A stretch of 64,000 nt of DNA from Candidatus Nanoarchaeia archaeon (GTDB lineage: Archaea; Nanobdellota; Nanobdellia; CSSed11-243R1), in the NCBI GenBank assembly GCA_028713895.1, contig JAQTNH010000001.1, forward strand, positions 661,376 to 725,375, in the 5' to 3' direction. Of the stretch, positions 12,116 to 64,000 are shown one piece after another. The position numbers and the translations under genes were made by a program. The notes under the pieces are model-generated. The model was not told the origin of the DNA. It saw nothing but the letters and a program-made list of their open reading frames with translations, and did no database searches. Position 1 is the stretch's first letter. Each line of letters opens with the position of its first letter.

Positions 12116-12147
12116 ATTTTTTATAATACCCTGCCCTTATTGTTTGC

Positions 12148-12396: not shown

Positions 12397-12442
12397 TAGT
12401 GGCTGATTTTTGGAAGCATTAATATATAGTGTGAACAAGAAG

Positions 12443-12606: not shown

Positions 12607-12652
12607 ACTAATAAGAAAAAGGTTAAATATTGGTTAAAAACTTTACTATAGC

Positions 12653-13807: not shown

Positions 13808-13948
13808 TCATTGCAAGAAGAGCTCTTCAACATTTCCGCATTTTTTGCAGAACATCTCTTCTTCGCGTCCTTCTGTCTTTGCCAGCTTATTTGAGCCGCA
13901 TGCCGAACAGTACAACTTTTTCAAAATCTCTAAATTGATTTTCGACAT
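13808..13948 (-). CDS. small zinc-ribbon protein (46 aa)
   Basis: Not in the track. My translation is MSKINLEILKKLYCSACGSNKLAKTEGREEEMFCKKCGNVEELFLQ, with two CxxC pairs. It sits between the permease and pelota. Confidence 0.4.
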   Translation of the reverse strand: MSKINLEILKKLYCSACGSNKLAKTEGREEEMFCKKCGNVEELFLQ

Positions 13949-14031
13949 AGTTACACCCGTAATTTCACTTAATACAATAAGTGGTTATAAAGTTTTTGTC
14001 ACCAATTTTAAACATCATACTTTTAGAAATT

Positions 14032-15102
14032 TTATCCAATCGGGAACCTGAGCATTGCTGCGACTTCAATCTTGCTGAAACGCTCGCCAGATTCGTGCTC
14101 GTCAGAAATTATCATTATGCGGGCGCCGCCGGACTCTGCATTCCGCATCAGCTGGTCAATAACCTCAAATGTCCCTGCTTCGCGGTGCTTTGAAATCGCG
14201 TAATCAGAAACCAGCAGGAGGTCAACTGCGCCAAATTCAACAGCTTTTTGGACGTCTTCAACCCCATAAACTGCAAACTGGCTGCTTTTTGAGACTTCTC
14301 CAAAGAAACGCTCAATTATCTGTGTTTCTTCCTGCACGCGGCTGCCTTTTACAACTTTGTCAACCTCGCCGCGTTTTATTATCTCATTAATTCCCGGCTT
14401 TCCTGCGCTGGATATTTTGACAAAAACAATCCTTTTTTTAAGCTCAGGCATGCGTTCAAGGGATTTTTCAAAATTTTCTGCAAAAAATCCAGGGCCTCCC
14501 AGAATTATTTTTCCAATGCCCTGCGACTTTGAGATTTCATCAAGCATTTTTGCGAGCTCTTCCATGAATGCGGAGCGGGACTTGTCATACTCCTTCATTG
14601 TTTCTTTTTTCTTGCCTGGCAGGGATTTGCTTAGTTCGCTTATGTGTTCAATTCCAAACTCGCGGAGCACTGCGATGTCTGCCTCGCCGTAATCAGCTGC
14701 GCAAAGAAGAAGCCGCGGCTGTTTTGACGCTGCTTCTGCGTCTTTCAAGCGTTCCAAATGCCATTTCTGGAAAACTTTAAAAATTTCAAGAGTGCGCCCA
14801 GGGCCTATGCTAAGAGCGTGATACTCTCCGTGCGGAACATCCTCATTTGAGGACTCAGATATTGTGCCAAGAATCCTGAGAGTGTCGCCGTGTTTTTTGA
14901 ACTCAACCTTCTCGACGCCAAGCCTGACATAAATCTTTTTGCGGATTCCTTCCTGCCCCTCTTCTTTTTTAGTGATGCGGGTTGTTTCTCCTGCAACAGC
15001 ATCAAGAGGCTCGATTATGCGCGACAGTATCCACAAGTCATCAAGATTATCAACCCTGACTTTGATTGAATTGTTCTTCAGGTCCTGGCTTAAAATCTTC
15101 AT
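14032..15102 (-). CDS. pelA: Pelota (mRNA surveillance / ribosome rescue factor)
   Basis: 356 aa with a typical Pelota N-terminus (DDLWILSRII) and an eRF1-like domain layout. Confidence 0.9.
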   Translation of the reverse strand: MKILSQDLKNNSIKVRVDNLDDLWILSRIIEPLDAVAGETTRITKKEEGQEGIRKKIYVRLGVEKVEFKKHGDTLRILGTISESSNEDVPHGEYHALSIGPGRTLEIFKVFQKWHLERLKDAEAASKQPRLLLCAADYGEADIAVLREFGIEHISELSKSLPGKKKETMKEYDKSRSAFMEELAKMLDEISKSQGIGKIILGGPGFFAENFEKSLERMPELKKRIVFVKISSAGKPGINEIIKRGEVDKVVKGSRVQEETQIIERFFGEVSKSSQFAVYGVEDVQKAVEFGAVDLLLVSDYAISKHREAGTFEVIDQLMRNAESGGARIMIISDEHESGERFSKIEVAAMLRFPIG

Positions 15103-15168
15103 AAATATAACAAACAGCCTGTCCTTTTTAAAGCAAACTTTTTATAATCATGTGTCCTAAGGCAAGAC

Positions 15169-15660
15169 ATGACAAAAAGTGAAATAGGGGTCGGCGATGC
15201 AATAAAACTTATCATAAGCCTGTTCTTCCCTATTTATGCAGGAGTTTTTGGGGCGATAATAACAAGTTTTACTGTAACAACATGGTATGCTGCCCTGAAC
15301 AAACCTTTTTTCAGCCCTCCAGGCTGGATTTTCGGGCCTGTGTGGACAATACTTTACATTTTGATGGGCGTTTCATTGTTCTTGGTATGGCGAAAAGGAA
15401 TCAACAGCGAAGCAGCACGGATGGCAATCGCAATCTTTGCATGCCAGCTTGCAGTGAACATGTTTTGGTCATTTGCATTCTTCGGGTTCATGGCGCCATT
15501 AGTGGCTTTGGTTACAATACTCCTTTTGTGGGGGCTTATACTGCTGATGATAGTCAACTTTTATCACATATCAAAAGCAGCAGCGATAATGAACATTCCA
15601 TACTTATTGTGGGTTTCATTCGCGACAATACTAAACATCGCGATTGTTGTGCTTAACTAG
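15169..15660 (+). CDS. tspO: TspO/MBR tryptophan-rich sensory protein
   Basis: 163 aa with 5 TM helices and the motif WYAALNKPFFSPPGWIFGPVWTILY. Confidence 0.85.
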   Translation: MTKSEIGVGDAIKLIISLFFPIYAGVFGAIITSFTVTTWYAALNKPFFSPPGWIFGPVWTILYILMGVSLFLVWRKGINSEAARMAIAIFACQLAVNMFWSFAFFGFMAPLVALVTILLLWGLILLMIVNFYHISKAAAIMNIPYLLWVSFATILNIAIVVLN

Positions 15661-15695
15661 AAGACTTTTAATATCAGCAAATTCTGATTTTAATT

Positions 15696-16829
15696 ATGGT
15701 GAAAAAGTCAAATCTGAATTTTTTTATTGCGACAGCACTAATAATAGGCACAATCTTTGGCGCTGGAGTCTTCGGGATACCTTACGCAGTATCAAAAGCA
15801 GGATTCCCGCTCGGGCTCATACTTATTGTTGTGCTTGGGATTGCGGTAACCCTGATGACGCTTTATATGGCTGAAGTCGTGCTGCGGACAAATAAAACAA
15901 AGCAGTTCGTGGGTTTGGCTGAAAAATATCTTGGAAAACCCGGCAAGTCCCTTATGTTTTTGAGCACAGTAATTGGGATGATTGGAGTCCTTACCGCATA
16001 TCTTGTCGGAATAGGAAACACAGCCCACACGCTGTTCGGGTTCGGCTCACCGCTGATTTTCACATTTGCGTTCTTCGCAATAGCATCGTTCCTTATTTAT
16101 TTTGGATTGAAAAGCATTGGAAAAGCCATGCTGGTTCTTACCTCAGTTCTCATTGCGGTAATTTTGATTGTATGTTTCATAATGTTCCCGAACATAAACG
16201 CCCAGAATGTGGGCTATATTGATACAAACAACTTCTTTTTTCCGTTCGGTATAATACTTCTTGCGCTGCTCGGGTACTCGATTATCCCTGAAGTTGAGAT
16301 TGTCCTTAAGAATGAAAAGAAGAAAATGCTTGGCGCAATAATACTTGCATCTGCGGCTTGTATCACAATCTATGTCCTTTTCACGCTGGCTGTGCTGGGA
16401 GCTTATGGCAGCAGTGTTGCAGAGATTGCAACGATGTCTTTTACAGGGCTTCCGAAGATACTCGGGAACCTTGTTGCACTGGCTGCAATGTCAGCCGCAT
16501 TCCTTTCGCTCGGCACCGTAATGACAGATGTTTTTGTTTATGATTTGAAACTCAAACGCTGGCTTGCATGGCTTATTGCATGTTTTGTGCCGCTCGGACT
16601 GCTTGTTGTTTTTTCACCGAGCTTTATCACAATGCTGGATATTGTCGGAATCTATTCAGGCGGGCTAACCGGGGTGCTTGCTGCGCTTATGGTGCTTAAG
16701 GCGCGAAAAAAAGGGGATGTCAAGCCTGCATTTGTCGTGCCTGGAGGAAAACCCCTGATATATGCGGTGCTTTTGCTTTTCCTGTTTGGGATGGTTTACC
16801 AGACACTTGTTTTTGCAGGCGTGATTTAA
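15696..16829 (+). CDS. amino acid permease (paralog of 12653-13807)
   Basis: 377 aa with the same N-terminal motif (GAGVFGIPY) and the same C-terminal PGG motif as its paralog. Confidence 0.75.
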   Translation: MVKKSNLNFFIATALIIGTIFGAGVFGIPYAVSKAGFPLGLILIVVLGIAVTLMTLYMAEVVLRTNKTKQFVGLAEKYLGKPGKSLMFLSTVIGMIGVLTAYLVGIGNTAHTLFGFGSPLIFTFAFFAIASFLIYFGLKSIGKAMLVLTSVLIAVILIVCFIMFPNINAQNVGYIDTNNFFFPFGIILLALLGYSIIPEVEIVLKNEKKKMLGAIILASAACITIYVLFTLAVLGAYGSSVAEIATMSFTGLPKILGNLVALAAMSAAFLSLGTVMTDVFVYDLKLKRWLAWLIACFVPLGLLVVFSPSFITMLDIVGIYSGGLTGVLAALMVLKARKKGDVKPAFVVPGGKPLIYAVLLLFLFGMVYQTLVFAGVI

Positions 16830-16875
16830 AAACATATAAAAATGCCCATCTTTTAGGATAGGTTGGTGAGATGAC

Positions 16876-17493
16876 ATGGTAGACTATAGTAATGCGCTTA
16901 AACGGCCGTTCAGTGACATAAAAAAACTCCTTATAGCAATACTCCTCAGCGTCATCCCAATTATTAGCTTCATGTTTACAGGATACATCCTGGATGTTGC
17001 CAAGACTGCGATGAAAAAGAAGTACAAACTTCCAGAATGGAGATACGGAACTAACTTTGTTCATGGGCTTATTTCATTCGTTATCAGTCTTATTTACATG
17101 CTTCCGTTCCTGATAATTACGATGCTGTTCATTGTCCTTATTACTATTTTTGAGAATAACACAGCTGGAACACTGATAACAATCCTTGTTTTTGTTGTGA
17201 TTGCAACATTATACAGCATTTTAATCATCGGAGCAACCATGCGATATGCGGAGACAAGAAAGTTTGGCGCTGCATTCGAGTTTGGGGCTATAATCAAAAA
17301 AACATTCAGCCAAAAATTCATTGTAGCCCTTTGTGTTGCAGGACTCATCTCATTTTTAGTTGCACTGGCTGTTGCAATGTTGCTGCTTTTGGTGCCCATA
17401 CCATTCGTACCGCTTTTGGTTTCAGTTTCAATGGGAACTGCGCTTTCAATATTCATGTACACTGTCTTGGGACAGGCGTACGCTGAAAAATAA
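16876..17493 (+). CDS. membrane protein (DUF4013-like)
   Basis: The N-terminus LKRPFSD.KKLLI and the KLPEW motif resemble DUF4013. It has multiple TM helices. Confidence 0.5.
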   Translation: MVDYSNALKRPFSDIKKLLIAILLSVIPIISFMFTGYILDVAKTAMKKKYKLPEWRYGTNFVHGLISFVISLIYMLPFLIITMLFIVLITIFENNTAGTLITILVFVVIATLYSILIIGATMRYAETRKFGAAFEFGAIIKKTFSQKFIVALCVAGLISFLVALAVAMLLLLVPIPFVPLLVSVSMGTALSIFMYTVLGQAYAEK

Positions 17494-17518
17494 TCTTTAA
17501 ATTCAAGGAGGAAACAAC

Positions 17519-17839
17519 ATGGCGAAAGGAAAAGTAGGAGAGTCCCAGATTTGGGCATTTTTGGCAGTATTTTTAGGCATCATTGGATTTATCCTGGTAT
17601 TGCTGACACAGAAAAAAGACAAGTATGCAATGTTTTATGCAAAACAAAGCCTTGTATTGATGATAGCATGGGTTATTTCATTTGTAATTGCAATAATCCC
17701 GGTACTAGGCTGGATAGTGTCCCCAATTATAGCGTTGGTAATATTCGTGCTGTGGATAATAGCAATAATAAACACATTCTCAGGCACAGAGAAACTGACA
17801 CCAATAATCGGGAAATTTGCAGAGAAGTTTAACTTTTAA
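17519..17839 (+). CDS. small membrane protein (DUF4870-like)
   Basis: 106 aa with 3 TM helices and a YAKQSL motif. Confidence 0.4.
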   Translation: MAKGKVGESQIWAFLAVFLGIIGFILVLLTQKKDKYAMFYAKQSLVLMIAWVISFVIAIIPVLGWIVSPIIALVIFVLWIIAIINTFSGTEKLTPIIGKFAEKFNF

Positions 17840-17845
17840 ACTGCC

Positions 17846-18021
17846 CTTTCTTTTTTTCAAAAAGAAAGCGTAAGTTGCGGAAAGAAAAATTTGTTTTCTT
17901 CCGTTATTTTTTCTTTTTTATTTTTTCCGTCTTTTTCTCTTTAATAAAGAGAAAAATATAGGCTGTCAAAAAGAGAAATGCGTGCTTTTCTTCCATTAAT
18001 GCTTCTTTTCTGGAAAAGAAG
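17846..18021. repeat. array of polypyrimidine-polypurine hairpins (CTTTCTTTT..AAAAGAAAG type)
   Basis: Stems read directly: 17846-17868 (10 bp), 17878-17903 (10 bp with a bulge), 17932-17956 (11 bp) and 18002-18021 (9 bp). A weaker one lies near 17971-17996. Confidence 0.6.
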
Positions 18022-18026
18022 GATTA

Positions 18027-18110
18027 TGCGGGGGAAGGGATTCGAACCCTCGAACTCACTAAGAGACTAGGCCCTGAACCTAGCACCTTTGACCGCTTGG
18101 CTACCCCCGC
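18027..18110 (-). tRNA. tRNA-Leu(CAG)
   Basis: Acceptor GCGGGGG/CCCCCGC, anticodon arm CTAGG-TTCAGGG-CCTAG, a long variable arm and T loop TTCGAAT. It is 84 nt with no intron. Confidence 0.9.
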
Positions 18111-18158
18111 AGCCACTATAATTTTTTGAACAGCATGTATAATTAAGCTTTTCTTTTA

Positions 18159-18374
18159 TTAGGACCTGCCAATGAATTCGAATCGTGGTTTTTTGATTCC
18201 GTCAACAATCACAGCCCCTTTAAACATTTTTAGCGGCCTCACCCAAATCTGATGTTCGCCATACAATGCCTGATAAACAACCAATTCTTCCTGCGTTTCA
18301 CTGTGTTTTGCTACGCCTAAGACTTCGTATTCATCGCCTTTGTAATGCCTGTACTTACCGCGTTTAATCTCCAT
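18159..18374 (-). CDS. DUF1653 family protein
   Basis: 71 aa with the pattern YRHYKG..YEV.GVAKHSET.EELVVYQALYG....WVRPL.MF. Confidence 0.7.
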   Translation of the reverse strand: MEIKRGKYRHYKGDEYEVLGVAKHSETQEELVVYQALYGEHQIWVRPLKMFKGAVIVDGIKKPRFEFIGRS

Positions 18375-18398
18375 AATTGCTCACATTACCCGATAGAT

Positions 18399-18529
18399 TG
18401 CGGGGGAAGAGATTCGAACTCTCGAAGGGACTAACCCACAGGGTGTCTTAGAGTTCTTTCCACGAGTGCTTTCTTCGCAAGAAAGGACTCTCCTAAACCC
18501 TGCCCGTTTGACCGCTCCGGCACCCCCGC
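18399..18529 (-). tRNA. tRNA-Leu(UAG) with a canonical-position intron
   Basis: The architecture matches tRNA-Leu(CAG). Anticodon stem CAGGG/CCCTG and loop TTTAGG-A. The intron is 18445-18491 (47 nt) and the mature length is 84 nt. Confidence 0.85.
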
Positions 18530-18537
18530 TTGAATCA

Positions 18538-18822
18538 TTAACTCTTTTTATTCCTTTTTTTGCTTTTCGGCTCGACAACATATTCATAGTAAAGAGCAAT
18601 GCAGAGCTGGGCAAAAATGAATCCGTTTACTGCAATAAAAACGAAATCTGCCTTTATTATGCTGTAAGCCAAAAGAAGTGTTGTGCCTAACAGCGCGATT
18701 TTTGCAAAGTTCGGGTTGAGCTTTGATTCACGTATCCTGATTATTTCAATTATCTCTGGAATCCATGCGGCTGCCAAAACCACAGCGCCCGCAATTCCAA
18801 TGATTTGCATCAATTCAACCAT
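18538..18822 (-). CDS. small 3-TM membrane protein
   Basis: 94 aa with three hydrophobic helices, a size like PQ-loop/SemiSWEET proteins. No family assignment is possible from the sequence alone. Confidence 0.4.
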   Translation of the reverse strand: MVELMQIIGIAGAVVLAAAWIPEIIEIIRIRESKLNPNFAKIALLGTTLLLAYSIIKADFVFIAVNGFIFAQLCIALYYEYVVEPKSKKRNKKS

Positions 18823-18858
18823 AACTGTTCAAGACACTAAATCTTTAAATTTGTTTCA

Positions 18859-19470
18859 TTGCTATCAGATACCATGGGAACGTGCATAAAAGCGCTGAAA
18901 AGCTATGAAGCTAAGCTAAAGATAAAAAAGAAAGGAGTTACCATAACTATTTCAGGGCAGTCTGGCTCAGGAAAATCAACAATAGCAGACGCAATTGCAA
19001 AAGCATTCCATCTGAAGCATGTCAATGTCGGAGACATATTCAGAAGCATCGCAAAAAAGAAAAAGGTCAAGCTTGAGACACTTTCTGAAACTGTGGGCAG
19101 GAAAATTGATTTTGAAGCAGACAAAAAGACACTTGAGCTTGCTAAAAAAGGAAAAGTCCTGCTCAATGGGAGGCTTACTGCGTGGGTTGCGGGAGACAAT
19201 GCTGATGTGAGGATATTTGTTGACTGTGACATAAATGTGCGCGCAAAAAGGGTTGCTCTGCGGGACAATAAAACAGTTGCACAGGCAAAAAAAGACCTTA
19301 TCAAGCGGGACAAAAATGATGCAAGACGCTACAAACATGTATACGGCTTCAACATTGCAGACAAACGGATTTATGACTTAATAATCGACAACACCAAAAT
19401 GAAGTTTAGCGAAGCGAAAAAGAAACCAGTACAGATGGTAAAACAGCTGCTGGCAGGGATGACTTGTTAG
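18859..19470 (+). CDS. cmk: cytidylate kinase (archaeal type)
   Basis: P-loop ISGQSGSGKSTIA and overall archaeal CMP kinase length. There is a short N-terminal extension, so the start is uncertain. Confidence 0.8.
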   Translation: MLSDTMGTCIKALKSYEAKLKIKKKGVTITISGQSGSGKSTIADAIAKAFHLKHVNVGDIFRSIAKKKKVKLETLSETVGRKIDFEADKKTLELAKKGKVLLNGRLTAWVAGDNADVRIFVDCDINVRAKRVALRDNKTVAQAKKDLIKRDKNDARRYKHVYGFNIADKRIYDLIIDNTKMKFSEAKKKPVQMVKQLLAGMTC

Positions 19471-19471
19471 A

Positions 19472-20233
19472 ATGGGAAAATATTTTTTGGATACTGTAAA
19501 AAAAGTAATCAAGACTGTAGACCTGATAATTGAGGTAGTTGATGCGAGATTCCCGATGGATTCGCGCAACTTTGAACTGGAAAGGATGATAACCCAGCTC
19601 AATAAAAAGTTCATTGTAGTGATAAACAAAGCAGATTTGGTGCCGGAAGAATTCGCACGATTTGCAGCCAAAAGGATATCCGAAGAGGTTTCATGCACGT
19701 ACATTTCTTCAACAGAACGCCATGGCACCCGGAAATTGTTTGATGCGATAAACCAGCTGAAGCGCGGTGACAGAGTCAAGATTGGCGTAATCGGCTATCC
19801 AAATGTCGGCAAGTCAATGATAATCAACGTCCTGAGAGGAAAGCACTCTGCACCAACAGGGTCAAAACCCGGAATAACCAAAAGTGTGCAGTGGATACGC
19901 ATCTCTCCGGACATAATGCTTTATGATACGCCAGGAGTGGTTCCGCTGAAAGGAAAGAAAGGCGCGTTCCTCAGAGGGGCTATTGATGTGATAAAAGTGC
20001 AGGATATTGAACAGTCTGTTGAGGAAATGCTCGGAGAATTCATCAAAAAAGGCGTTGCAGACAAAGTCGAAGCAAAATATGGCATGCCTCTTACGACTCC
20101 GGATGGATTTCTTGAAGCTTTTGCAAAAAAGTACAATCTCCTGCGGAAAGGCGGAGTTGCTGACACTGAACGCGCTGCAAGGCGAATCTATCATGACTGG
20201 ATTACAGGCAAAATAAAGCTTTGGTGGCTATAA
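19472..20233 (+). CDS. circularly permuted GTPase (YlqF/RbgA/Nog2-like ribosome biogenesis GTPase)
   Basis: G4 (NKADL) precedes G1 (GYPNVGKS) and G3 (DTPG), which is the permuted order. Confidence 0.7.
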   Translation: MGKYFLDTVKKVIKTVDLIIEVVDARFPMDSRNFELERMITQLNKKFIVVINKADLVPEEFARFAAKRISEEVSCTYISSTERHGTRKLFDAINQLKRGDRVKIGVIGYPNVGKSMIINVLRGKHSAPTGSKPGITKSVQWIRISPDIMLYDTPGVVPLKGKKGAFLRGAIDVIKVQDIEQSVEEMLGEFIKKGVADKVEAKYGMPLTTPDGFLEAFAKKYNLLRKGGVADTERAARRIYHDWITGKIKLWWL

Positions 20234-20314
20234 TCACTGGTATTTTTGTCCCTTTTTAGTTATATTTATAAACCACTATTACATTTGCCCTGTCTGACAA
20301 AAAGGTGCTTAACA

Positions 20315-21103
20315 ATGTCAAAAAATCTTGAATCGCTACTAAAAGGAATTGATTTAACAAATACAGATGATGTACTAAATGCTTTTGGAATAATCGACAA
20401 AAAGAGAGAATACATAGACAAAAGAATTGAGAAATTTAAAAAAGAAACTGAAAAAAGAATTGAGAAATTTAAAAAAGAAGCTGAACATATTGAAAAAATC
20501 GACAAAAAAATTCAGGAAGCGGCTTATAAGTTAACTGAAATAACCCCTTTGCATAATTCTAAAAAAATGAATAGCAGGGCAATCCTTTACGTGCTCGGCA
20601 ATGATAATGTTGTATATACGGGAGAGCTGGACCTTGAGAAAGGCAAGTATTTGGTACAAAACGAAAGCACACCCTTGCACTGGGAGTATATTGACTCACC
20701 TAAAATAATAGAAGAACTAGTAAAACAACATAACAAAAGGCTTGGTGGCAAAACCAGTTTTGATATATACTCTGTAAGAAATCCTCTGAACAAGTTGATT
20801 GCACCTGAGCTTGAAAGGTATGCAGCAGCTCAACTTTTAGTGAAGTACTTAAACGAAAATCCCGGACTAAAAGCAAAGCAAGATTTGCAAATGCAGAAGT
20901 ATTTGGAAAACAGATTCCGTTTGCTGAATACACCTTTTAATCCTTTCGGTGATTTGTTTGGTATTGCTGGCGTTGAATTACATGTTGTTGAAGAAGGTCC
21001 AATGACTAAAGAAAAGTACAAACTATGCACTAAACTATGCCCTAAAGAAGAAAAATGCGAATCCTATGTGGCTGCAAAGAAACAATTCGGCGGCAAAAGC
21101 TAA
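20315..21103 (+). CDS. hypothetical protein with an internal 11-aa tandem repeat
   Basis: I prefer the ATG at 20315, with an AAAGGTG SD upstream, over the track start at 20246. It contains KRIEKFKKETE/KRIEKFKKEAE. No family recognised. Confidence 0.4.
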   Translation: MSKNLESLLKGIDLTNTDDVLNAFGIIDKKREYIDKRIEKFKKETEKRIEKFKKEAEHIEKIDKKIQEAAYKLTEITPLHNSKKMNSRAILYVLGNDNVVYTGELDLEKGKYLVQNESTPLHWEYIDSPKIIEELVKQHNKRLGGKTSFDIYSVRNPLNKLIAPELERYAAAQLLVKYLNENPGLKAKQDLQMQKYLENRFRLLNTPFNPFGDLFGIAGVELHVVEEGPMTKEKYKLCTKLCPKEEKCESYVAAKKQFGGKS

Positions 21104-22939: not shown

Positions 22940-24144
22940 AGTCTCCAAACATGTGCCTGATGTGCAAAGGTGGAAGGGCGCTGTGCGGAAACCAGAGATG
23001 CCCGCTGCTTAGCAGGGTAGAAGCGCTTCCAAAGATTGCAAGCCAGATGAAAACAAAGGAATTCTTCGGGCCAAGCACATCAATATTTGTCGGGCATGTG
23101 GGATATCCGAGCGTGAATGTCGGGCCAGTCGGGGCGCTGGGATTCAAGGAAAAGATTGATGCGCCAGAGCAATGGTTCGGCATGGAGTACAATGACGTGA
23201 TTGAAATGCGCTCGCTCACTCTTCGCTCAAAAATGTCACAGCATGTCAAGTCAAAATCAAGAATCGTGGAAGACAGCCAGCTCCTTGCAATGGCTGAGAC
23301 TCCAACTGATGTTGAGATGAACTTCAAGAAAGAGCCTAGCTACAAATTCTCGTTCTCTGATATTGTGCAGCCAATGGGGCCGAGCGCGCCGCTTGACAGG
23401 CTGAAAATAATTGACAATGTCCACATCTCCAGAAAAGTGGATTACATTGTGCATGATGACTTGAAATCAGCTGAGCAATGCTATTCAATGTACCAAGTTG
23501 GTGTGGACATCCATAAGGTCATGAACATACTCAGCTCAGGAGCGCTTGGCGTTGAAGAGAACCAGAAAATGGTTCCGACAAAATGGTCAATTACAGCATT
23601 TGACGATATGGTCACTAAAAATTTGTTAGAAGACTTAAGAACCTCATCTGAAATTAAAGAAATTCAGACATTTGAAAGCGAGTATCTTGGGAATCACTTC
23701 ATTATTTTGTTGATTCCTGGTAAATGGGAATTTGAGAATTTCGAGGCTTGGTCTCCAGGTTCAACATGGGCAATGGATGCAAAAGAAACACAAGTAGTTG
23801 GAGAATACGAACCTTTTGAAGGAAGAACGACTTATGCGCAAGGACAGAGCGGTGGTTATTACGCAAGTAGATTTTCAATAGTCGAGTATTTACATAATAT
23901 TAAACGACAAGCTAGAGTTGTTGCATTTAGAGAAATTTCAGAAAAATACGTTGTACCCTTAGGAGTTTGGTTGGTTCGTAGCACTGTTAAACATGCGTTT
24001 GACAGCCATCCAACTAAATTTAATTCTTTGAAAGAGGCATTAAATTTTATTAGTTCTAAACTTAAGTTACCTATGCACAATTATCTGAGAGACAGTAAAA
24101 TTTTACGTCAAACTAGATTACTTGACTTTAACAATTTAGTTTAG
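22936..24144 (+). CDS. nreA: archaeal Nre-family DNA repair protein
   Basis: 402 aa with an N-terminal Cys cluster (CLMCKGGRALCGNQRCP) and later GGYYA and VPLGVW motifs, as I recall them for the Nre family (DUF650/DUF651). This needs a profile search. Confidence 0.55.
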   Translation: MKSPNMCLMCKGGRALCGNQRCPLLSRVEALPKIASQMKTKEFFGPSTSIFVGHVGYPSVNVGPVGALGFKEKIDAPEQWFGMEYNDVIEMRSLTLRSKMSQHVKSKSRIVEDSQLLAMAETPTDVEMNFKKEPSYKFSFSDIVQPMGPSAPLDRLKIIDNVHISRKVDYIVHDDLKSAEQCYSMYQVGVDIHKVMNILSSGALGVEENQKMVPTKWSITAFDDMVTKNLLEDLRTSSEIKEIQTFESEYLGNHFIILLIPGKWEFENFEAWSPGSTWAMDAKETQVVGEYEPFEGRTTYAQGQSGGYYASRFSIVEYLHNIKRQARVVAFREISEKYVVPLGVWLVRSTVKHAFDSHPTKFNSLKEALNFISSKLKLPMHNYLRDSKILRQTRLLDFNNLV

Positions 24145-25413
24145 ATTTGGTCTATACGGTAATTTCCAATCGCTTATGTTCGGATTGAATGTGTATACTT
24201 GGCGTATTATGCTCCCAAACGATTTCTTTTTTCCGAACTTTCCTTTTGTAACTATTATTATATTTGCTTGCTCAAAAATTTTAAGATAATGCGCAATTGA
24301 ATGCGCCCACTTTCCGCCATAGCTTTTAAGATTTTTTGATGTTATGATGCGATTAACTAGTTCATATCTACAACACTCTTTAAGTTCCTTTATTGCATTG
24401 AATACATCTTCAATACAAATTTTGTTACCTGAACCATTTTTAAAAATATTATTTAGTATACATATTGCATCTTTTTCATTGTTTATGCAAGTTTGGAAAC
24501 CATAGACATAGTCATAAAGTTTATACCACTTTTCAGTTTTGGGCTCAAAAAAGTTTAACCAGATTTTTGCTTCGTCTTTTGATAATTTATTGCTCCAGAA
24601 TCTCCAATAGCTCCCGCTTGGCTTGTTCATTAGCGTTATCTTTAGTCCACATAAGTTTAAAATTTCAAAAAGGTCATCTCTAAACTGTTTGCTTACGACA
24701 CATAACTCAACCTGATTTTTTATTCCTACACCTGCCTCAAAACTTAACGCCCCTATTGCGAATGCGTTTCTAAATCTTGATTTTTTAATTATTTCTGGTT
24801 CTCTAACAGTATACACTTTTTCTCCATTAGGAAAATTAAATATTTGAGTTATGTATCTTGTTATTACTTTGTTATGAAATGATATTGCCCATTCATTTTC
24901 ACTTATTTGTTTTATTGAGCCCACTCTTGTTTCAAATATGTTTTCTATCCAAGATTTAAATGCGATTAAATTTGATTTATATCCATCTGAAATACGGAAA
25001 AAATTATCATGTACAGTTCCATCTGCAGCATGGGCTCCCATAACTTTACATAGTTCTGTGTTCAATCCTTTAACTGCCTTAACTGGTTTTGCTACAGAAT
25101 TGTTAATCTTTAAGAATTCAATATTTTCTTGAAACTTGTTTTTGGAGCCATTTGTTAACTTTATCAGGTATTCTATGAAAATCAAAGGAAACCATTCTTT
25201 TTTAAGATAAGCCATTCGTTGAGCATTTGAATTAGACACATGAAGCTCTTTTTCTATTAGTCTAAACAGTTTATATTGTGAGATCCCCTTTTCCTTAAGC
25301 GACTTAATCATAATGTTTAGTTCTGTTTTAACATTTTTACCTTTGCAAACTATCCAACCTCTTGCTTTGATATCCCTTGAGTAATCCTGTAATTTGAACA
25401 AGTCAATTTCCAT
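24136..25413 (-). CDS. LAGLIDADG-like protein with N- and C-terminal HTH-like extensions
   Basis: Motifs LCKVMGAHAADGTV and FAIGALSFEAGVGI lie about 100 aa apart, and the second is degenerate. The gene is AT-rich and overlaps the nre stop by 9 nt, convergently. Confidence 0.6.
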   Translation of the reverse strand: MEIDLFKLQDYSRDIKARGWIVCKGKNVKTELNIMIKSLKEKGISQYKLFRLIEKELHVSNSNAQRMAYLKKEWFPLIFIEYLIKLTNGSKNKFQENIEFLKINNSVAKPVKAVKGLNTELCKVMGAHAADGTVHDNFFRISDGYKSNLIAFKSWIENIFETRVGSIKQISENEWAISFHNKVITRYITQIFNFPNGEKVYTVREPEIIKKSRFRNAFAIGALSFEAGVGIKNQVELCVVSKQFRDDLFEILNLCGLKITLMNKPSGSYWRFWSNKLSKDEAKIWLNFFEPKTEKWYKLYDYVYGFQTCINNEKDAICILNNIFKNGSGNKICIEDVFNAIKELKECCRYELVNRIITSKNLKSYGGKWAHSIAHYLKIFEQANIIIVTKGKFGKKKSFGSIIRQVYTFNPNISDWKLPYRPNLN

Positions 25414-27446: not shown

Positions 27447-27572
27447 GCTCCTGTAGCTCAGTCAGAAGAGCGCGTGCTTGGTAAAGCCTTTCTTTTGCGA
27501 AAGAAAACCTTGGGAAAGAAAACCCAAAATCCGAAGAGCACGAGGTCGTGGGTGCAATTCCCACCGGGGGCT
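27447..27572 (+). tRNA. tRNA-Thr(GGU) with a canonical-position intron and atypical D and T loops
   Basis: Acceptor GCTCCTG/CGGGGGC (two G-U pairs), anticodon stem CGTGC/GCACG and loop TTGGTA-A. The intron is 27484-27536 (53 nt). The D loop AGTCAGAA lacks GG and the T loop is TGCAATT. Confidence 0.75.
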
Positions 27573-39340: not shown

Positions 39341-39457
39341 TGTTCGCGGTCATAGGGTAGGGGCAAAACCTGTTCCCATTTCGAACACAGAAGTTAATCC
39401 CTGCCGCGGTGCCTCTTGTACTCTGTTCACAGGGGAATCTGGCATAGCTGCGAACAC
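39341..39457 (+). rRNA. 5S rRNA (stand-alone)
   Basis: Terminal helix TGTTCGCGG/CTGCGAACA and a conserved core (CCCATTTCGAACACAGAAGTTAA). A TATA-like ctttataaatc lies about 25 nt upstream. Confidence 0.85.
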
Positions 39458-58003: not shown

Positions 58004-59077
58004 ATGGCAAAAAAACAAGTTGAAACTGAGGAAAATTCTGAAGAAGAGTCTTTTGAAGAGGAATCTGAAAAAGAAACTGAAGAAGAAGAAACTGCAGAGG
58101 CAAAACCCGCTGCAACAAATGGCGTGGACGAGGTATTTGATATTGAGCATATTCCTGGCGTGGGCGCAACAACAGCACGCAAGATGCGCGAGGCAGGATA
58201 CAAGGATGCAATGGGGATTGCAACCGCGTCTCCTGTTGGACTGGCTGAAGTGTGCGAAATAGGCGAGGCAACTGCCAGAAAAATAATCGAAGTGGCGCGC
58301 TCGCATCTTAAAATGAATTTCATCACAGGCACAGAAATGCTTGAGAAGATGAAAAAAGTCAAGCTCATAAAGACGGGCTCGAAAGCCCTGGACGGGCTGA
58401 TTGGCGGAGGTGTGGAAACCCAGTCAATCACAGAAGCATACGGCGCATTCGGCTCGGGAAAATCACAGCTTGCATTCCAGCTTGCAGTGAATGTCCAGCT
58501 TCCTGAAGAGCAGGGAGGGCTGAACGGAGATGTTGTCTGGATTGATACAGAAGGGACATTCCGTCCGAACCGAATCATCCAGCTTGCAAAAGTAAAAGGG
58601 CTTGACCCTGAAAGAGTTCTTGCAAAACTTCATGTTGCGCGCGCATTCTCAGCTGACCACCAGATTTTGCTGGCAGAAAAAGTGCCTGAACTTTTCCAGC
58701 AGCATCCTGAAATTAAGCTGATAATTGTGGACTCAATCTCCTCAATTTTCAGGAGCGAATTCGTCGGAAGGGGGACTCTTGCAGACAGGCAGCAAAAGCT
58801 GAACAAACACATCCATGATTTGCAGAGGCTGGCAGACAGATACAATGCGGCTGTCTATATTACTAACCAGGTTATGGCAAAGCCAGACATGTTTTTCGGA
58901 GACCCGACACAGGCTGTCGGAGGGCATGTGCTCGCACATGCATCAACCTACCGCGTGTACCTCAGGCACTCAAAAGGCGACAAGAGAGTTGCAAAACTTG
59001 TTGACTCGCCATGCCTGCCAGAGGGAGAGTGCGCATTCAAGATTGATGAGAACGGGATAAGCGATATTGAAGGCTGA
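58004..59077 (+). CDS. radA: DNA repair and recombination protein RadA
   Basis: HhH ([12 protein letters not shown]), Walker A (GAFGSGKSQ) and Walker B (LIIVDS). I prefer the ATG at 58004 (GGTG SD 8 nt upstream). The N-terminal tail of about 45 aa is acidic. Confidence 0.95.
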
Positions 59078-59119
59078 GCAATACAAACCTATTTAATTCT
59101 TATCTTCCTTTTTATTTTT

Positions 59120-59506
59120 ATGGTAAACAAATTGCTTTTATTAGGAACTTTATTAGTCGCAGCAATTGTAATTTTAGGATGCACTTCACAAAAAACAACA
59201 GCAGAGACACCAGCACCAATAGAGACAGCAGCGCCAGAAACAAGAGTTGACATCTTAGCGCCTCCGGTTTATGAAGCGCCGTTGGACCAGTCAAAATTCA
59301 CGCTTTCATGCGAAAAAACCAGCGACTGCAAGCTTGTGGACGTTAAAACAGGCTCAGGAAACATAGAACAATGCATGAATGCGGATACAGAATACCAGGG
59401 TGTTGCGTCAGACAAGTGCACATGCAAATATATTGGCACGACAGAACAGTCATTTCCAAATGATACAATAATTTTGCATGATAATTACGAATGCCGACAT
59501 ATCTAA
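59120..59506 (+). CDS. secreted Cys-rich lipoprotein-like protein
   Basis: Signal peptide ending in the lipobox-like ILGC, followed by 7 further Cys residues. Confidence 0.55.
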   Translation: MVNKLLLLGTLLVAAIVILGCTSQKTTAETPAPIETAAPETRVDILAPPVYEAPLDQSKFTLSCEKTSDCKLVDVKTGSGNIEQCMNADTEYQGVASDKCTCKYIGTTEQSFPNDTIILHDNYECRHI

Positions 59507-59609
59507 TTTTTTCTTTTTTTATTACATTCCAGTTAATATCTTAAGGATAATATTTATAAAAACCAAATTCGTTCTAAATCATTAGTATAACCCATAAGGA
59601 GGAGGTCAA

Positions 59610-59822
59610 ATGGACACACAGGATATAGCTTTGATGTTAGTTATCGGCATTCTTGTAATTGCATTGATAGTTGTTAATACAGCACCTGTCGGGCAAATAG
59701 AAGAATCCGTAAGTATAGACAAGCCATTACCAGCCAGGATACCACTGCGAAGTTCGGTAACAACAATGGTCTCGGTATATGACCCAACTATACACGCCAC
59801 TACAAGAGTAGAGGTTATCTGA
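59610..59822 (+). CDS. small N-terminally anchored protein
   Basis: Strong GGAGGAGGT SD. Its TM segment (LMLVIGILVIALIVV) resembles the anchors of the three downstream paralogs. Confidence 0.35.
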   Translation: MDTQDIALMLVIGILVIALIVVNTAPVGQIEESVSIDKPLPARIPLRSSVTTMVSVYDPTIHATTRVEVI

Positions 59823-59850
59823 TGATTATTAAAACAAAGGAGGAAAAATA

Positions 59851-60774
59851 ATGGCAAGTATAACAAAACCAATTTTATTGGCAGTAGTCGGAATTCTTGC
59901 AGTTGTACTGTTCTTACAGACAAGCAGCTTAATTACAGGCTTTACAATAGGGCAAAACATGTCAGCAACGACAAACGTAAGTACTAACAACGCAGAACCA
60001 ACAGTGTTTGACGTAAACTTTTCAATGGTTGTAACACCAACAGGTTGCGCAAACGACTCAGCCACAGTATGGTGCTGGGGAACTGTAAACGACCTTAACG
60101 GAGTAGTTAACATTTCAAGCGTAAACGCAACATTGTGGGCGAATGCACTGGGAGAATCAAGTTGTGACTGGGGCGCTACAGAAGAAAACGCTTCAAAATG
60201 CTATTTTAACACATCATGCAACTCCAATGCTTCGTTGTCAGGAAACGCAACAGCAGCAATCTACAACTGCAGCTTTAAGTCGCTTCCATATTATGCATGG
60301 AACGGCACATGGAACTGCACAATGTGGGCAACTGACGGAATCAATAGCTCTAAAGACAACTCAGCTGATGCAACATTAACAACAAGAGACAGAAGCGAAT
60401 ATTACGCAATAAACATTGACACAGACATTTACTGGGGCGCAGCAACAGTTGGAGAAAAGAAACAGGACACTGACGTAGTAGAGAACTGCGGAAACAGGCC
60501 ACTTGATGTACAGGTAAACGGTACAGACATGGAATGTGACTCCGGAACAAAGATTGGATCTACAAACATTACAGCGAGCGTTGGTTCAGCTGCTAAGAAC
60601 ATTGACCTTTCAGGAACACTACAAACACTTCAGACGAACCATTCAGTAGCTGTAGACGCTTGTGGAGCAACAGGTTGCGCAAATGAAACAACCTTCTGGA
60701 ACATAACAATTCCAAGCGGTGCGACAGGAACCTGTAAAGGCAATGCAACATTCGTTGCAATAGAAGACTCTTAA
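59851..60774 (+). CDS. N-terminally anchored, Cys-rich, sequon-dense surface protein (paralog A)
   Basis: 307 aa with an AAGGAGGA SD and a single N-terminal TM helix. I count 20 N-x-S/T sequons. Ten Cys residues are conserved with paralogs B and C. The C-terminus is GNATFVAIEDS. Confidence 0.7.
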   Translation: MASITKPILLAVVGILAVVLFLQTSSLITGFTIGQNMSATTNVSTNNAEPTVFDVNFSMVVTPTGCANDSATVWCWGTVNDLNGVVNISSVNATLWANALGESSCDWGATEENASKCYFNTSCNSNASLSGNATAAIYNCSFKSLPYYAWNGTWNCTMWATDGINSSKDNSADATLTTRDRSEYYAINIDTDIYWGAATVGEKKQDTDVVENCGNRPLDVQVNGTDMECDSGTKIGSTNITASVGSAAKNIDLSGTLQTLQTNHSVAVDACGATGCANETTFWNITIPSGATGTCKGNATFVAIEDS

Positions 60775-60894
60775 ACGTCTTTTATCTTTTTTTCTTTTTT
60801 TATATTTTCTTTTTTATGCCCTGTGCCAACAGGTTCTATGCGATAATCTTATAAAATAACAGCTCCTGAATACATCCAATGGAGAGGTTATAAA

Positions 60895-61809
60895 ATGGTA
60901 AACGCATTCAAGACATTTTTATGGGTGGTAATAGGATTTCTTGCAGTAGTCATATTCTTGCAGACGACAAACCTGATGACTGGATTTTCAGTCCAGCAAA
61001 ACAGGACATCAACGACAAACGTAAGCACCAACAATTCAGAGCCTGCAGTGTTTGACGTAAACTTCTCAATGGTTGCAACACCGGAGAATGGCTGCGCAAA
61101 CGACACAAGCACAGTATGGTGCTGGGGAACTGTAAACGACCTCAACGGAGCAGTTAACGTTTCAAGCGTAAACGCAACATTGTGGGCGAATGCACTGGGA
61201 GAATCTGGCTGTGACACAGCAGGCGAAGCAAACCTGTCAAAATGCTATGTGAATGCATCATGTTATGTCAATGCTTCGTTTCCAGGAAATGCAACAGCAG
61301 CAACATACAACTGCAGCTTTAAGCCTCTTGCATATTATGCATGGAACGGAGCATGGAACTGCACAATGTGGGCAACTGACGGAATTGGAACTGGAAAAGG
61401 GGACTCAGGAACCGCAACAGGAACTATACGGGACAGAGAAGCATATTACGCAATAAATGTTGAAACAGACATTTACTGGGGCGCTGGAAAAGTCGGGGAC
61501 AAGAAACAAGACACTGACATAGTAGAGAACTGCGGAAACAGGCCGCTGGATATACAGATAAACGGCACAAGCATGGACTGCTATTCAGGAACTTCAATCG
61601 GGGTCTCAAATATTTCAGTAAGCGTGAGTTCAGCAGCAGCAAACTTCAACCTTTCAGGAACACTGCAGACACTCCAGACGAACCATTCAGTAGCAATACC
61701 TGAAGTGCCTGGAGTAAATGTAACAACCTACTGGAACGTAACAATCCCGGCAGGGGCAATAGGCCAGTGCACAGGCAATGCAACATTCGTTGCAATAGAA
61801 GACTCTTAA
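60895..61809 (+). CDS. N-terminally anchored, Cys-rich, sequon-dense surface protein (paralog B)
   Basis: 304 aa with the same architecture. It has its own TATA-like box and SD. Confidence 0.7.
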   Translation: MVNAFKTFLWVVIGFLAVVIFLQTTNLMTGFSVQQNRTSTTNVSTNNSEPAVFDVNFSMVATPENGCANDTSTVWCWGTVNDLNGAVNVSSVNATLWANALGESGCDTAGEANLSKCYVNASCYVNASFPGNATAATYNCSFKPLAYYAWNGAWNCTMWATDGIGTGKGDSGTATGTIRDREAYYAINVETDIYWGAGKVGDKKQDTDIVENCGNRPLDIQINGTSMDCYSGTSIGVSNISVSVSSAAANFNLSGTLQTLQTNHSVAIPEVPGVNVTTYWNVTIPAGAIGQCTGNATFVAIEDS

Positions 61810-61930
61810 ACGCAGTTTCTTTTTTGTTTTTTTATATCTCTACTTTCTGCCAAGGCTGTCTTGCAACTGTTTGGTAACAATATTTATAAACAAACAGCTT
61901 TTTGGATAGATATATCGGAGGCGAGTAAAT

Positions 61931-62839
61931 ATGAGTATATCCAAACCAATTTTACTAATTGTTATAGGCATCTTAGTGGTGGTTTTATTCGTGCAGACAA
62001 CAAACCTTATCACAGGATTCACAATCCAGCAAAACAGGACAGCAACAACAAATGCAAGCGCACCAAATGCCAATCCCGGGCTCACCAATGTAAATTTCTC
62101 AATGGTTGCAACGCCTTCAGCAGGCTGCGCAAACGACACTAGCACAGTATGGTGCTGGGGAATTGCAATTGATGACAACGGATGGAGAAATATAACTTCA
62201 GCAAACGCAACATTATGGGCAAATGAAATCGGCGCAGCAGCCTGCGACACGGCAAGCGAAGCAAACATGTCCAAGTGCTATGTGAACACATCATGCTTTG
62301 TAAATACTTCATCGAATGCCACTGCAACAACAATCAACTGCAGTTTCAAAAATCTGGCAAATTATGCATTGAACGGAACATGGAACTGCACAATGTGGGT
62401 TAATGACAGTATCGGGCCTTCTGCAACAGACAATTCGAACGATGCTACGTTAACAACACGAGCCAGAAGCGCATATTATGCAATAAATATCAATACAGAC
62501 ATCTACTGGGGCGCTGTAACTGTGGGGTCCAAATCACAGATTCAAGACAATGTTACAAACTGCGGAAACAGGCCGATTGACATACAGGTAAACGGCACAA
62601 ACATGGAATGCGACAGCGGCACAACCATTGGCTCCCAAAACATTTCAATAAGCGTGGGTTCAGCAGCAGAAAACTTCAACCTTACAGGAAACCTGCAGAC
62701 ACTCCAGACGAACCATTCAATACCAACACAGGAAACCCCATTGCCAAATGAAACAACATACTGGAACCTGTCAATGCCAAGAGGAACAACAGGCTCATGC
62801 AAAGGCAATGCTACTTTTGTGGCAATAGAAGACAGCTAG
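61931..62839 (+). CDS. N-terminally anchored, Cys-rich, sequon-dense surface protein (paralog C)
   Basis: 302 aa with the same architecture. It is the most divergent of the three. Confidence 0.7.
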   Translation: MSISKPILLIVIGILVVVLFVQTTNLITGFTIQQNRTATTNASAPNANPGLTNVNFSMVATPSAGCANDTSTVWCWGIAIDDNGWRNITSANATLWANEIGAAACDTASEANMSKCYVNTSCFVNTSSNATATTINCSFKNLANYALNGTWNCTMWVNDSIGPSATDNSNDATLTTRARSAYYAININTDIYWGAVTVGSKSQIQDNVTNCGNRPIDIQVNGTNMECDSGTTIGSQNISISVGSAAENFNLTGNLQTLQTNHSIPTQETPLPNETTYWNLSMPRGTTGSCKGNATFVAIEDS

Positions 62840-62866
62840 ACACATTAATATTAACGGTGAGGCAAA

Positions 62867-64000
62867 GTGAAAAAAGTAATCATTTGTGTTTTGTTAATTG
62901 TATCCCTATTATTAGTTATTGCGCCCGCAGCCCAGGCATACGGCTTGGGAGTCGGGGGGCAAGTTGTTCTTAAGGATGTTTTGCGTGGAGGATTTGCAAC
63001 ATCAAGGCTTACAGTTAACAACCCGAATCCATTCCCTGTCGGAGTTGGCGCATGGCTTACAGGAGACATTGCAGACTGGATAACACTTTCTCCTGCGGAC
63101 CTTACACTCCAGCCCAATGAACAGAATTATGTTGATGTTACAATACAGCCGCCGCCATTTGTGCCGAACGGAGTTTATACCGGACAAATAACCTTTGTCA
63201 CAACAACAGTTGCCGGAGGCGAAAGCGGAGGCGGAGCCGGGGTTGTAATAGCAGTCGGCTCTGCAATCAACGCTGTAATCGAGATATCTGACCAGGAGAT
63301 ACACTCAATCTTTGTAAGCTCTGTCACTGCTGAGCGGACTGAAGAGTGCAGGCCCATAAACATTAAGGTTGCGCTTCAGAACAAAGGAAATGTTGATACG
63401 ATACCCTCATATTCAGTTTCATTGTACCACAACGAAAAAGGTTTTGTCAAGATAGAATCAATTACAACAGAGGCTGTCAGGCCGACTATCCAGAGAACAG
63501 ACACGCTGGCATTAGGCTATTCTACAACAGGGCTTGGGGCAAACTGGGAGCAGTTCCTTTGTCTGCCTGCAGGAGACTACACAGCAACCCTGACTGCGAC
63601 TGACCAGTTTGGAAAAGAGTTCTACACAGGCAGCGTTCCAGTTTATATCCTCCAAAAAGGGGCGATTTCATTAAGCGGAAACCTTAAGGATATCAAACAC
63701 AAGGATACTGCAAAGCTTGGAGAGCCTGTAAAGATAACAGGCGCTTTTGAGAACACAGGAGTTTCGACTGAGCAGTCAAAACTTAAGGTCGAGGCATACA
63801 AAGGCGACAGGCTTGTTGAAATAGTGACTGGCGAGGAAACACTTTCAGACCCAGGGCAGATAACAAATGTAACTGCATATTTCACGCCAAAAGAGCTCGG
63901 GGAATTCCAGCTTAAAAGCAGCGTTAACTTCGGCGGAAAATCCACCAACTTTATTGAATCAGAACTTGCTGTTGAGCTTGGGCTGACAATAATAATCATA
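62867..64000 (+). CDS. secreted multi-domain beta-sandwich (CARDB/Ig-like) cell-surface protein, 3' partial
   Basis: Not in the track because there is no stop codon within the window. It has a GTG start after a GGTGAGG SD and the signal peptide MKKVIICVLLIVSLLLVIAPAAQA. The frame is open for 378 codons to the window end. It contains CARDB-like strands (INIKVALQNKGNVD). Confidence 0.65.
   Translation, partial: MKKVIICVLLIVSLLLVIAPAAQAYGLGVGGQVVLKDVLRGGFATSRLTVNNPNPFPVGVGAWLTGDIADWITLSPADLTLQPNEQNYVDVTIQPPPFVPNGVYTGQITFVTTTVAGGESGGGAGVVIAVGSAINAVIEISDQEIHSIFVSSVTAERTEECRPINIKVALQNKGNVDTIPSYSVSLYHNEKGFVKIESITTEAVRPTIQRTDTLALGYSTTGLGANWEQFLCLPAGDYTATLTATDQFGKEFYTGSVPVYILQKGAISLSGNLKDIKHKDTAKLGEPVKITGAFENTGVSTEQSKLKVEAYKGDRLVEIVTGEETLSDPGQITNVTAYFTPKELGEFQLKSSVNFGGKSTNFIESELAVELGLTIIII

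Follow-up and report, generated by a model that had tools for sequence, protein, structure and literature searches.

DPANN archaea spend their lives attached to other cells, and both the build of their surface and the way in which they recognise a host are poorly understood. The present analysis concerns a window (the whole stretch of DNA examined, 64,000 nucleotides) from a Candidatus Nanoarchaeia archaeon (assembly GCA_028713895.1, contig JAQTNH010000001.1, positions 661,376 to 725,375 of the forward strand) and, within it, three consecutive genes, designated paralogs A, B and C, that are followed by a gene for a 401-residue protein called p400. Our analyses suggest that A, B and C are tandem paralogs of an unnamed and widespread family of exported proteins with two immunoglobulin-like (Ig-like) domains, found mainly in DPANN archaea and in at least one bacterial locus; we hold this to be the probable reading and refer to the family protein as X.

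The surface inventory predicted for a cultivated DPANN archaeon comprises N-glycosylated Ig-fold proteins together with pectin-lyase-like and lectin-like proteins, and no surface layer (S-layer) or adhesin of a DPANN archaeon has been established experimentally (bioRxiv 10.1101/2023.10.27.564410). Like X, and from the same type of lineage, the proteins MJ1_0160/0299/0707 of Nanobdella aerobiophila combine a signal or transmembrane (TM) segment with Ig folds and many N-x-S/T sites (sequons), are co-encoded or co-occur with β-helix and ConA/LamG-like giant proteins and have no homology to characterised S-layer proteins, both groups being known from prediction. Compared by description, the MJ1 proteins span 900-1300 residues and 4-8 Ig folds, whereas X has about 300 residues, two Ig-like domains, a fixed cysteine pattern and a partner gene. 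A further, circumstantial likeness in gene arrangement is offered by SlaA/SlaB of Sulfolobales, where, as would be the case for X/p400, the gene of a glycosylated outer Ig-rich protein lies beside that of a β-sandwich protein anchored by a C-terminal TM segment; there is however no sequence similarity between the two systems, X has roughly one-fifth the size of SlaA and it possesses its own N-terminal hydrophobic segment. Two consecutive β-sandwiches on an exported surface protein are likewise found in the BspA (AgI/II) C-domain, MSCRAMM N2-N3, the integrin αV thigh/calf and CfaE, which gave the best Foldseek matches (E 3.5e-5 to 1e-3), a likeness that goes no further than fold class; X is devoid of LPXTG, and the taxa differ. 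No Pfam or NCBIfam match in X points to the TasA/camelysin (Peptidase_M73) fibres with SipW. X is a new unnamed family within the archaeal Ig-fold surface glycoproteins, a kind already known, and the present results do not in themselves point to a new mechanism.

Three tandem paralogs and their family

The three genes, and the parts of the copy that was modelled (paralog B), are the following.

59851..60774, + strand: paralog A, 307 aa, 12 Cys, 20 sequons
60895..61809, + strand: paralog B, 304 aa, 10 Cys, 20 sequons, the copy used for the model
60895-60984, + strand: predicted export/anchor helix of B, aa 1-30
60985-61044, + strand: linker of B, aa 31-50
61045-61404, + strand: predicted Ig-like domain 1 of B, aa 51-170
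61429-61806, + strand: predicted Ig-like domain 2 of B (ASH/PapD-like), aa 179-304
61931..62839, + strand: paralog C, 302 aa, 10 Cys, 22 sequons, without a terminator-like tract after it

The initial annotation had described three tandem genes for proteins of 302-307 residues that are about two-thirds identical, and the exact open reading frames (ORFs) bear this out, with pairwise identities of 71% (A-B), 68% (A-C) and 65% (B-C). The alignment also reproduces the ten cysteines at positions common to all paralogs (two further ones occur in A), the N-terminal hydrophobic helix that ends in LQT..L.TGF, and the identical C-terminus GNATFVAIEDS, which stands right after the last β-strand. The extreme sequon density reported earlier, with 20 sites in paralog A, was found again: the 20, 20 and 22 sequons of A, B and C compare with means of 6-9 in 2000 shuffles of the same composition (maximum 15-17), and their density of 6.5-7.3 per 100 residues with a window mean of 0.68 over 84 non-overlapping ORFs, the next highest ORF reaching 1.5. 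Eighteen of the 24 sequon positions are common to all three paralogs and, across the family, sequon density is bimodal. The absence of a pilin-type (K/R)-G site and of a C-terminal sorting signal holds as well. A, B and C have no C-terminal TM or other C-terminal hydrophobic segment and no LPXTG-type or archaeosortase (PGF-CTERM) signal, and their N-termini (MASITK-PILL.., MVNAFK-TFLW.. and MSISK-PILL..) contain no class III [KR][GA] site, with no G/A at -1.

The cysteine framework can be read as five disulfides. Column co-occurrence across the family (76 with 156, phi 0.72; 110/106 with 117, phi 0.71; 229 with 292, phi 0.91), together with Cys 123 and 140, which are both near-invariant, suggests four family-wide bonds; a fifth would be specific to a sublineage and join Cys67 and Cys213, two sublineage-specific residues left over to pair together. 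The earlier view of the paralogs as heavily glycosylated surface proteins fits this picture well, their sequences being those of exported, disulfide-rich and very probably heavily N-glycosylated proteins.

The check by AlphaFold and Foldseek that had been recommended gave a confident model and generic fold matches. Supplied with an alignment of 94 sequences, AlphaFold2 modelled paralog B with a predicted local distance difference test (pLDDT) score of 90.9 and a predicted template modelling (pTM) score of 0.78, as against a pLDDT of 38.5 with the three paralogs alone. The model consists of a helix (residues 3-30), a stretch of lower confidence (~21-40), a β-sandwich at ~51-170 and a second one at ~179-304; each sandwich has 7-8 strands, and the last strand is the protein's own C-terminus (296-302), as read from the secondary-structure map. 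In the model, two complete Ig-like β-sandwiches per protein are clear. Foldseek searches against PDB and BFVD returned only generic tandem-Ig matches (E 1e-5 to 1e-3, TM-score 0.2-0.34, identity 8-12%), among which were the BspA C-domain, integrin αV thigh/calf, CfaE, transglutaminase C-terminal barrels, the ASH domains of HYDIN and CEP192, PapD-PapG and the basal pilin EbpB. As modelled, domain 2 is ASH/PapD-like at the level of the fold: it shares 'i.fG.v.vG....t..v.N.GN..l.i' with the ASH/PapD-like/choice-of-anchor D families (PF15780, PF22544, NF012200), HYDIN and the CEP192 SPD-2 domain are among its Foldseek matches, and a PDB-sequence profile search gave a weak HYDIN match on its strand pair 'idfG..avG....t..v.N.GN'. 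Domain 1, the cysteine framework and the C-terminal W..P.G..G.C.G motif are, by contrast, not part of these families.

Relatives were retrieved by an exhaustive search with a profile hidden Markov model (HMM), which yielded 464 cluster representatives at E<=1e-3, of which 145 also pass E<=1e-10, and thereby rules out an orphan family. All of them are unannotated, and the few with a source name are entered as 'hypothetical protein [Candidatus Woesearchaeota archaeon]'. The majority occur as stand-alone proteins of some 300 residues with a hydrophobic segment at the N-terminus. Among the best 150 matches, 47 exceed 345 residues; in most of these the match ends within a few residues of the C-terminus, and of the ten long relatives scanned six carry Pfam domains (Laminin_G_3, DUF2341, He_PIG/Big, BNR) ahead of or next to the module. 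Searches of A, B and C against Pfam, NCBIfam and PDB sequences were empty, none of 94 members reached a curated family threshold, and PF15780, PF22544 and NF012200, to which the window proteins gave no match at E<=1, were each matched by only one of the 94, at E ~1e-3 to 7e-3, below the curated thresholds. A word-indexed protein search found nothing beyond the paralogs themselves, and two scans of the GTDB species-representative genomes with family peptide patterns gave no confirmed relative. The initial annotation could assign the family to no known domain, and indeed no named Pfam, NCBIfam or PDB family takes it in and neither structure nor profile searches place it in a well-characterised family; it is however not unique, given at least 464 clusters and a clear predicted two-Ig fold. 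What were three 'hypothetical proteins' now form a defined family, with a two-Ig fold, a cysteine framework, a genetic partner and a recurring gene-cluster architecture.

A conserved and fast-evolving gene cluster

The family profile revealed no further copies in the window or in 9 kb beyond it. The genes and putative expression signals that surround the paralogs are listed below.

59120..59506, + strand: lipoprotein-like gene, 128 aa, signal peptide ending in a lipobox-like ILGC, 7 Cys
59550..59609, + strand: TATA-like box atatttataaaaa (59550-59562) and Shine-Dalgarno (SD) motif ggaggagg (59598-59605), read from the sequence
59610..59822, + strand: tm71, 70-aa single-TM protein, 28 nt upstream of paralog A
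60775..60894, + strand: A-B intergenic region, oligo-T tracts, TATA-like cttataaaat and SD ggagaggt, presumed expression signals
61810..61930, + strand: B-C intergenic region, oligo-T tracts, TATA-like atatttataaac and SD ggaggcga, presumed expression signals
62867..64000, + strand: p400, 401 aa, cut by the window end, signal peptide (..AAQA, then Y), about three predicted Ig-like (ASH/CARDB-like) domains, C-terminal TM anchor

Each paralog had been credited with its own T-rich stop region, TATA-like box and SD motif, which is true in part. An SD motif stands ahead of A, B and C alike, and B and C have their own oligo-T/TATA regions upstream; A, in contrast, starts 28 nt after tm71 and must therefore share the upstream region of that gene, and C is followed after 27 nt by p400, with no T-rich stop between them. 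An oligo-T tract downstream of the lipoprotein gene precedes the TATA-like box at 59550-59562, and the elements of 59550..59609 probably serve as promoter of a tm71-A unit. Judged from spacing only, the likely transcription units are tm71-A, B alone, and C-p400-p200 with what follows.

Among the genes of the window are archaeal housekeeping genes (GatD/E, pelota, NreA, diphthamide synthase), and the closest named proteins to its RadA come from a Nanoarchaeota archaeon (78%) and from Candidatus Parvarchaeota (63-67%); judged by these best named matches, the organism is taken for a DPANN archaeon with a small genome. Starting from RadA, the order of a lipoprotein of ~130 residues, a TM protein of ~71 residues, one to three X genes, p400, p200 and a giant protein is kept in the related loci L004, L005 and L006, so that the copy number of X varies from 1 to 3 among close relatives. 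The lipoprotein gene is the first conserved member of this surface cluster, with same-position orthologues in L004 and L006 (49-52% identity). The TM segment of tm71, LMLVIGILVIALIVVNT, resembles that of the paralogs; in L003, L004 and L006 the gene is likewise conserved immediately before the first copy of the family (67-77% identity), and analogous TM proteins of 75-79 residues adjoin the distant members in L008 and L009. The C-terminal TM anchor of p400 is followed by RMRRGY, and the window copy has only one sequon (1-2 among p400s). Its Ig-like Pfam matches are weak, its TapA match is sub-threshold (19 bits vs a cutoff of 80), and its profile found no match in PDB. The gene for p200, a p400-like protein of 202 residues, is overlapped by the p400 gene; the giant neighbour has 5227 residues, of which the first 2353 contain 103 sequons, and it combines an N-terminal TM segment with Beta_helix and Laminin_G_3 domains. 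All three (11973-20915 of the 20.9-kb locus L001) are conserved in relatives.

The association with p400 is not limited to close relatives. Homologues of p400 adjoin family members in L004-L007, L009, L014 and L015, and the linkage holds for X proteins that are only 25-30% identical to the window copies (L007; L009, E 5e-26; L014/L015, E 5e-40). The order is X-X-p400 in L007. L014/L015 contain a stand-alone X, then a fused X (an N-terminal extension with the X module at the C-terminus) and p400, preceded in L014 only by a secreted protein of ~245 residues. L009 (1-2885) presents a p400-like gene, X, a small TM protein and a signal peptidase I; as the peptidase matches sigpep_I_bact with 129 bits and there is a Fur regulator close by, this locus is taken as bacterial, and the module is accordingly not confined to archaea. 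The X copy of L009 has only 6 sequons, in line with the bimodal sequon density of the family. Woesearchaeota-type loci (L002, L010-L013) are organised otherwise: X comes after an HTH regulator (usually) and two secreted, sequon-rich proteins of ~245 residues that carry 'WQGYYGN(I/V)TG ... YDF(E/Q)MIV ... YYFYVEL', and it is followed in L010-L012 by a protein of 545-585 residues with a C-terminal anchor, the neighbours being different in L002 and L013. The genes of the ~245-residue proteins lie directly upstream of X at these positions.

L002, 8136-9732: pair of ~245-aa proteins
L010, 8440-9985: pair of ~245-aa proteins
L013, 7812-9385: pair of ~245-aa proteins
L014, 1-357: the ~245-aa protein of this locus

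Neither the ~245-residue nor the 545-585-residue partners belong to a Pfam family, hhalign finds no homology between X and p400, and none is detectable between X and the ~245-residue proteins. The conserved partner module is the part of the locus most worth following up.

Another identity considered for the cluster was the arCOG01314-associated putative archaeal secretion complex, in which DUF4350, a MoxR-type AAA+ ATPase, vWA and PF07760 Ig-like membrane proteins occur together (Makarova et al. 2015, PMC5898192). It was rejected, as the defining Pfam families are absent from the gene tables of L001, L006, L010 and L015 and p400 has no PF07760 match.

Between the window and L004, RadA is 96.6% identical, with 0.027 nonsynonymous (dN) and 0.57 synonymous (dS) substitutions per site, vs 43-52% identity and a dN of 0.43-0.48 for the X ectodomains; dN amounts to 0.48 for the lipoprotein, to 0.34 for p400 and, against L006, to 0.59 for p200. 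The whole surface cluster is a hot spot of fast evolution. Few parts of the genome, which is otherwise conserved, evolve as fast as this locus, and it supplies concrete candidates together with a seed alignment for a family model. Between-genome dS is saturated (1.4-2.3), so that site tests are not meaningful on these sequences. The dS of the surface cluster (0.8-2.3) exceeds the 0.57 of RadA (window 58004-63999 vs L004); either RadA is codon-constrained, or the surface cluster has a deeper or recombinant history.

The initial annotation had seen in the paralogs a pattern that suggested diversifying proteins, and this is not borne out by the substitution rates. Paralog dS of 0.57-1.3 and dN/dS of 0.19-0.33 indicate that the duplications are old and that the copies are under purifying selection; dN/dS stays below 1 in every segment along the gene, no positive selection was found among the paralogs at the whole-gene or 20-30-codon scale, and no segment of 20 or 30 codons rises above a ratio of nonsynonymous to synonymous differences per site (pN/pS) of ~1. 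That divergence is concentrated in loops is moderately true, in that pN peaks around residues 161-180 and 256-300 but varies only ~2-fold along the gene. Ectodomains from one genome resemble each other more than they resemble those of other genomes. A patch of 92% nucleotide identity, vs ~75% elsewhere, joins 60043-60168 in A to 61090-61215 in B (both + strand); pS between A and B falls to 0.07-0.18 in codons 61-100 vs 0.34-0.68 elsewhere, and between B and C it is 0.10 in codons 241-260. The copies are thus partly homogenised, and concerted evolution by gene conversion explains their within-genome similarity at least in part. Hypervariation driven by a diversity-generating retroelement was discarded: the L001 gene table holds no reverse transcriptase domain, and no repeats other than the three gene copies, hence no template repeat, occur in 59000-64000.

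Proposed role and competing explanations

On balance, we favour the interpretation that X proteins are exported, N-glycosylated envelope proteins that act with p400. The N-terminal hydrophobic segment would target X to the Sec translocon; the ectodomain, made of a short Asn/Thr-rich linker and two Ig-like domains with a predicted five disulfides and ~20 sequons per product, would then be translocated, N-glycosylated and oxidised, and would stay on the cell surface, held by its own N-terminal segment and/or by binding to p400 with its C-terminal membrane anchor. The two-Ig unit may have a structural role or act as a docking module in a fast-evolving envelope cluster that also includes tm71, p200 and the adhesin-like β-helix/LamG giant, the three copies having arisen by tandem duplication and been maintained by purifying selection, with patchy gene conversion. 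As such, the family provides credible candidates for the cell envelope or the host-contact surface of DPANN archaea.

Several observations weigh against this interpretation. Export, glycosylation and disulfide formation are deduced from sequence, and a physical interaction between X and p400 from the adjacency of their genes; moreover, no recognisable p400 occurs in the Woesearchaeota-type loci L002 and L010-L013, where other partners stand instead. The evidence on the N-terminal segment also points both ways. Among first-position copies (A, L004a, L006 and L003) the first 30 residues are 87-93% identical, with only 53-70% of third codon positions matching, and this conservation ends exactly at G30; as the peptide was kept while third codon positions diverged, selection on the peptide, and not recent recombination, is responsible. 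Such conservation is unusual for a disposable signal peptide. The segment would be either a retained signal anchor, in keeping with its strongly conserved hydrophobic core and its resemblance to the TM segment of the probably co-transcribed tm71, or a peptide cut after the invariant L-I-T-G, in keeping with the -3/-1 rule, which cleavage after I-T-G satisfies, with the end of conservation at G30 and with the ordinary A-x-A signal peptides of many homologues.

The occurrence of the module at the C-terminus of lectin-type proteins, and of fused copies between a stand-alone X and p400, suggests a shared 'foot' on which variable heads are mounted. It is tempting to go further and to hypothesize that the two-Ig protein, p400 and the small TM protein (with the ~245-residue proteins in other lineages) constitute an undescribed surface-assembly module of DPANN archaea and some ultrasmall bacteria, in which the two-Ig unit would be a universal 'foot' or polymerising subunit that mounts lectin, β-helix and LamG heads and the N-terminal I-T-G segment a dedicated sorting/processing signal. 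We consider this extension rather unlikely; if true, the module would be the attachment apparatus that episymbionts use on their hosts.

Some of the same facts could be accommodated by an S-layer pair comparable to SlaA/SlaB, with glycosylated X as the outer lattice (canopy), p400 as the membrane-anchored stalk and the larger X-module proteins woven in. The ~20 sequons of X vs 1-2 in the C-terminally anchored p400, the adjacency of their genes and the probable co-transcription of C and p400 would suit such a pair, as would the fast sequence turnover typical of S-layer genes, the module common to X and the fused proteins, and the current candidature of N-glycosylated Ig-fold proteins for DPANN S-layers (bioRxiv 10.1101/2023.10.27.564410). 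Mature X, however, has ~270 residues, which is small for an archaeal S-layer protein, its own conserved N-terminal hydrophobic segment would be needless in a canopy subunit, and copy number changes from 1 to 3 between close relatives. We therefore regard the S-layer explanation as doubtful.

A fibre of non-type-IV kind, assembled with a chaperone by analogy with chaperone-usher or sortase pili, seems to us quite improbable. It would have X as subunits, the lectin-X fusions as tip adhesins and p400 as a membrane-tethered chaperone or platform, and the operon does resemble pilus operons in its small paralogous subunits, its larger lectin-headed subunit with a C-terminal module and its Ig-domain partner; CfaE, PapD-PapG and EbpB appear among the Foldseek matches, and a dedicated signal peptidase I adjoins the module in the bacterial locus L009. 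Yet both modelled sandwiches are complete and self-complemented, with no missing G strand, and residues 31-40 form a polar, sequon-bearing linker instead of an alternating hydrophobic donor strand; LPXTG or any other C-terminal sorting signal is lacking, the Foldseek TM-scores are only 0.2-0.34 and generic, and hhalign detects no relation between X and p400. The filament subunits proposed in the initial annotation are thus not upheld, the more so as the proteins have no class III signal and no pilus machinery is encoded in 20 kb around the genes.

Type IV pilin- or archaellin-like filaments, with the N-terminal helix as core and the glycosylated Ig domains as surface, would account for the tandem paralogs, for the hydrophobic helix joined to glycosylated β-sandwiches as in archaeal pilins and archaellins, and for a 30-residue N-terminus far more conserved than the ectodomain, as in pilins, but they are extremely improbable given that no [KR][GA] prepilin-peptidase site precedes the hydrophobic stretch (M-A-S-I-T-K-P..), that conservation stops after this stretch at G30, that a low-confidence linker separates helix and domain 1, that in many members an ordinary signal peptide is present or the module forms the C-terminal end of a large protein, and that the Pfam table of L001 lists no T2SSE ATPase (PF00437), T2SSF platform (PF00482) or Peptidase_A24.

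Other features of the window

Four further features lie at a distance from the surface cluster.

24136-25413, - strand: 425-aa ORF with 9 Cys and no NCBIfam match at E<=1e-5
39342-39456, + strand: solitary 5S rRNA gene, the window containing neither 16S nor 23S
27447-27572, + strand: Rfam tRNA match of 126 nt (47.8 bits), not called by ARAGORN
4084-5241, + strand: 385-aa ORF between gatD and gatE, overlapping the start of gatE

The match at 27447-27572 is probably an intron-containing archaeal tRNA. The 385-residue ORF has a LAGLIDADG-like N-terminus, YLCGVFAGDGCL, and its sole family match, which is weak, covers part of the aIF2 model; the ORF may represent a free-standing homing-endonuclease-like gene.

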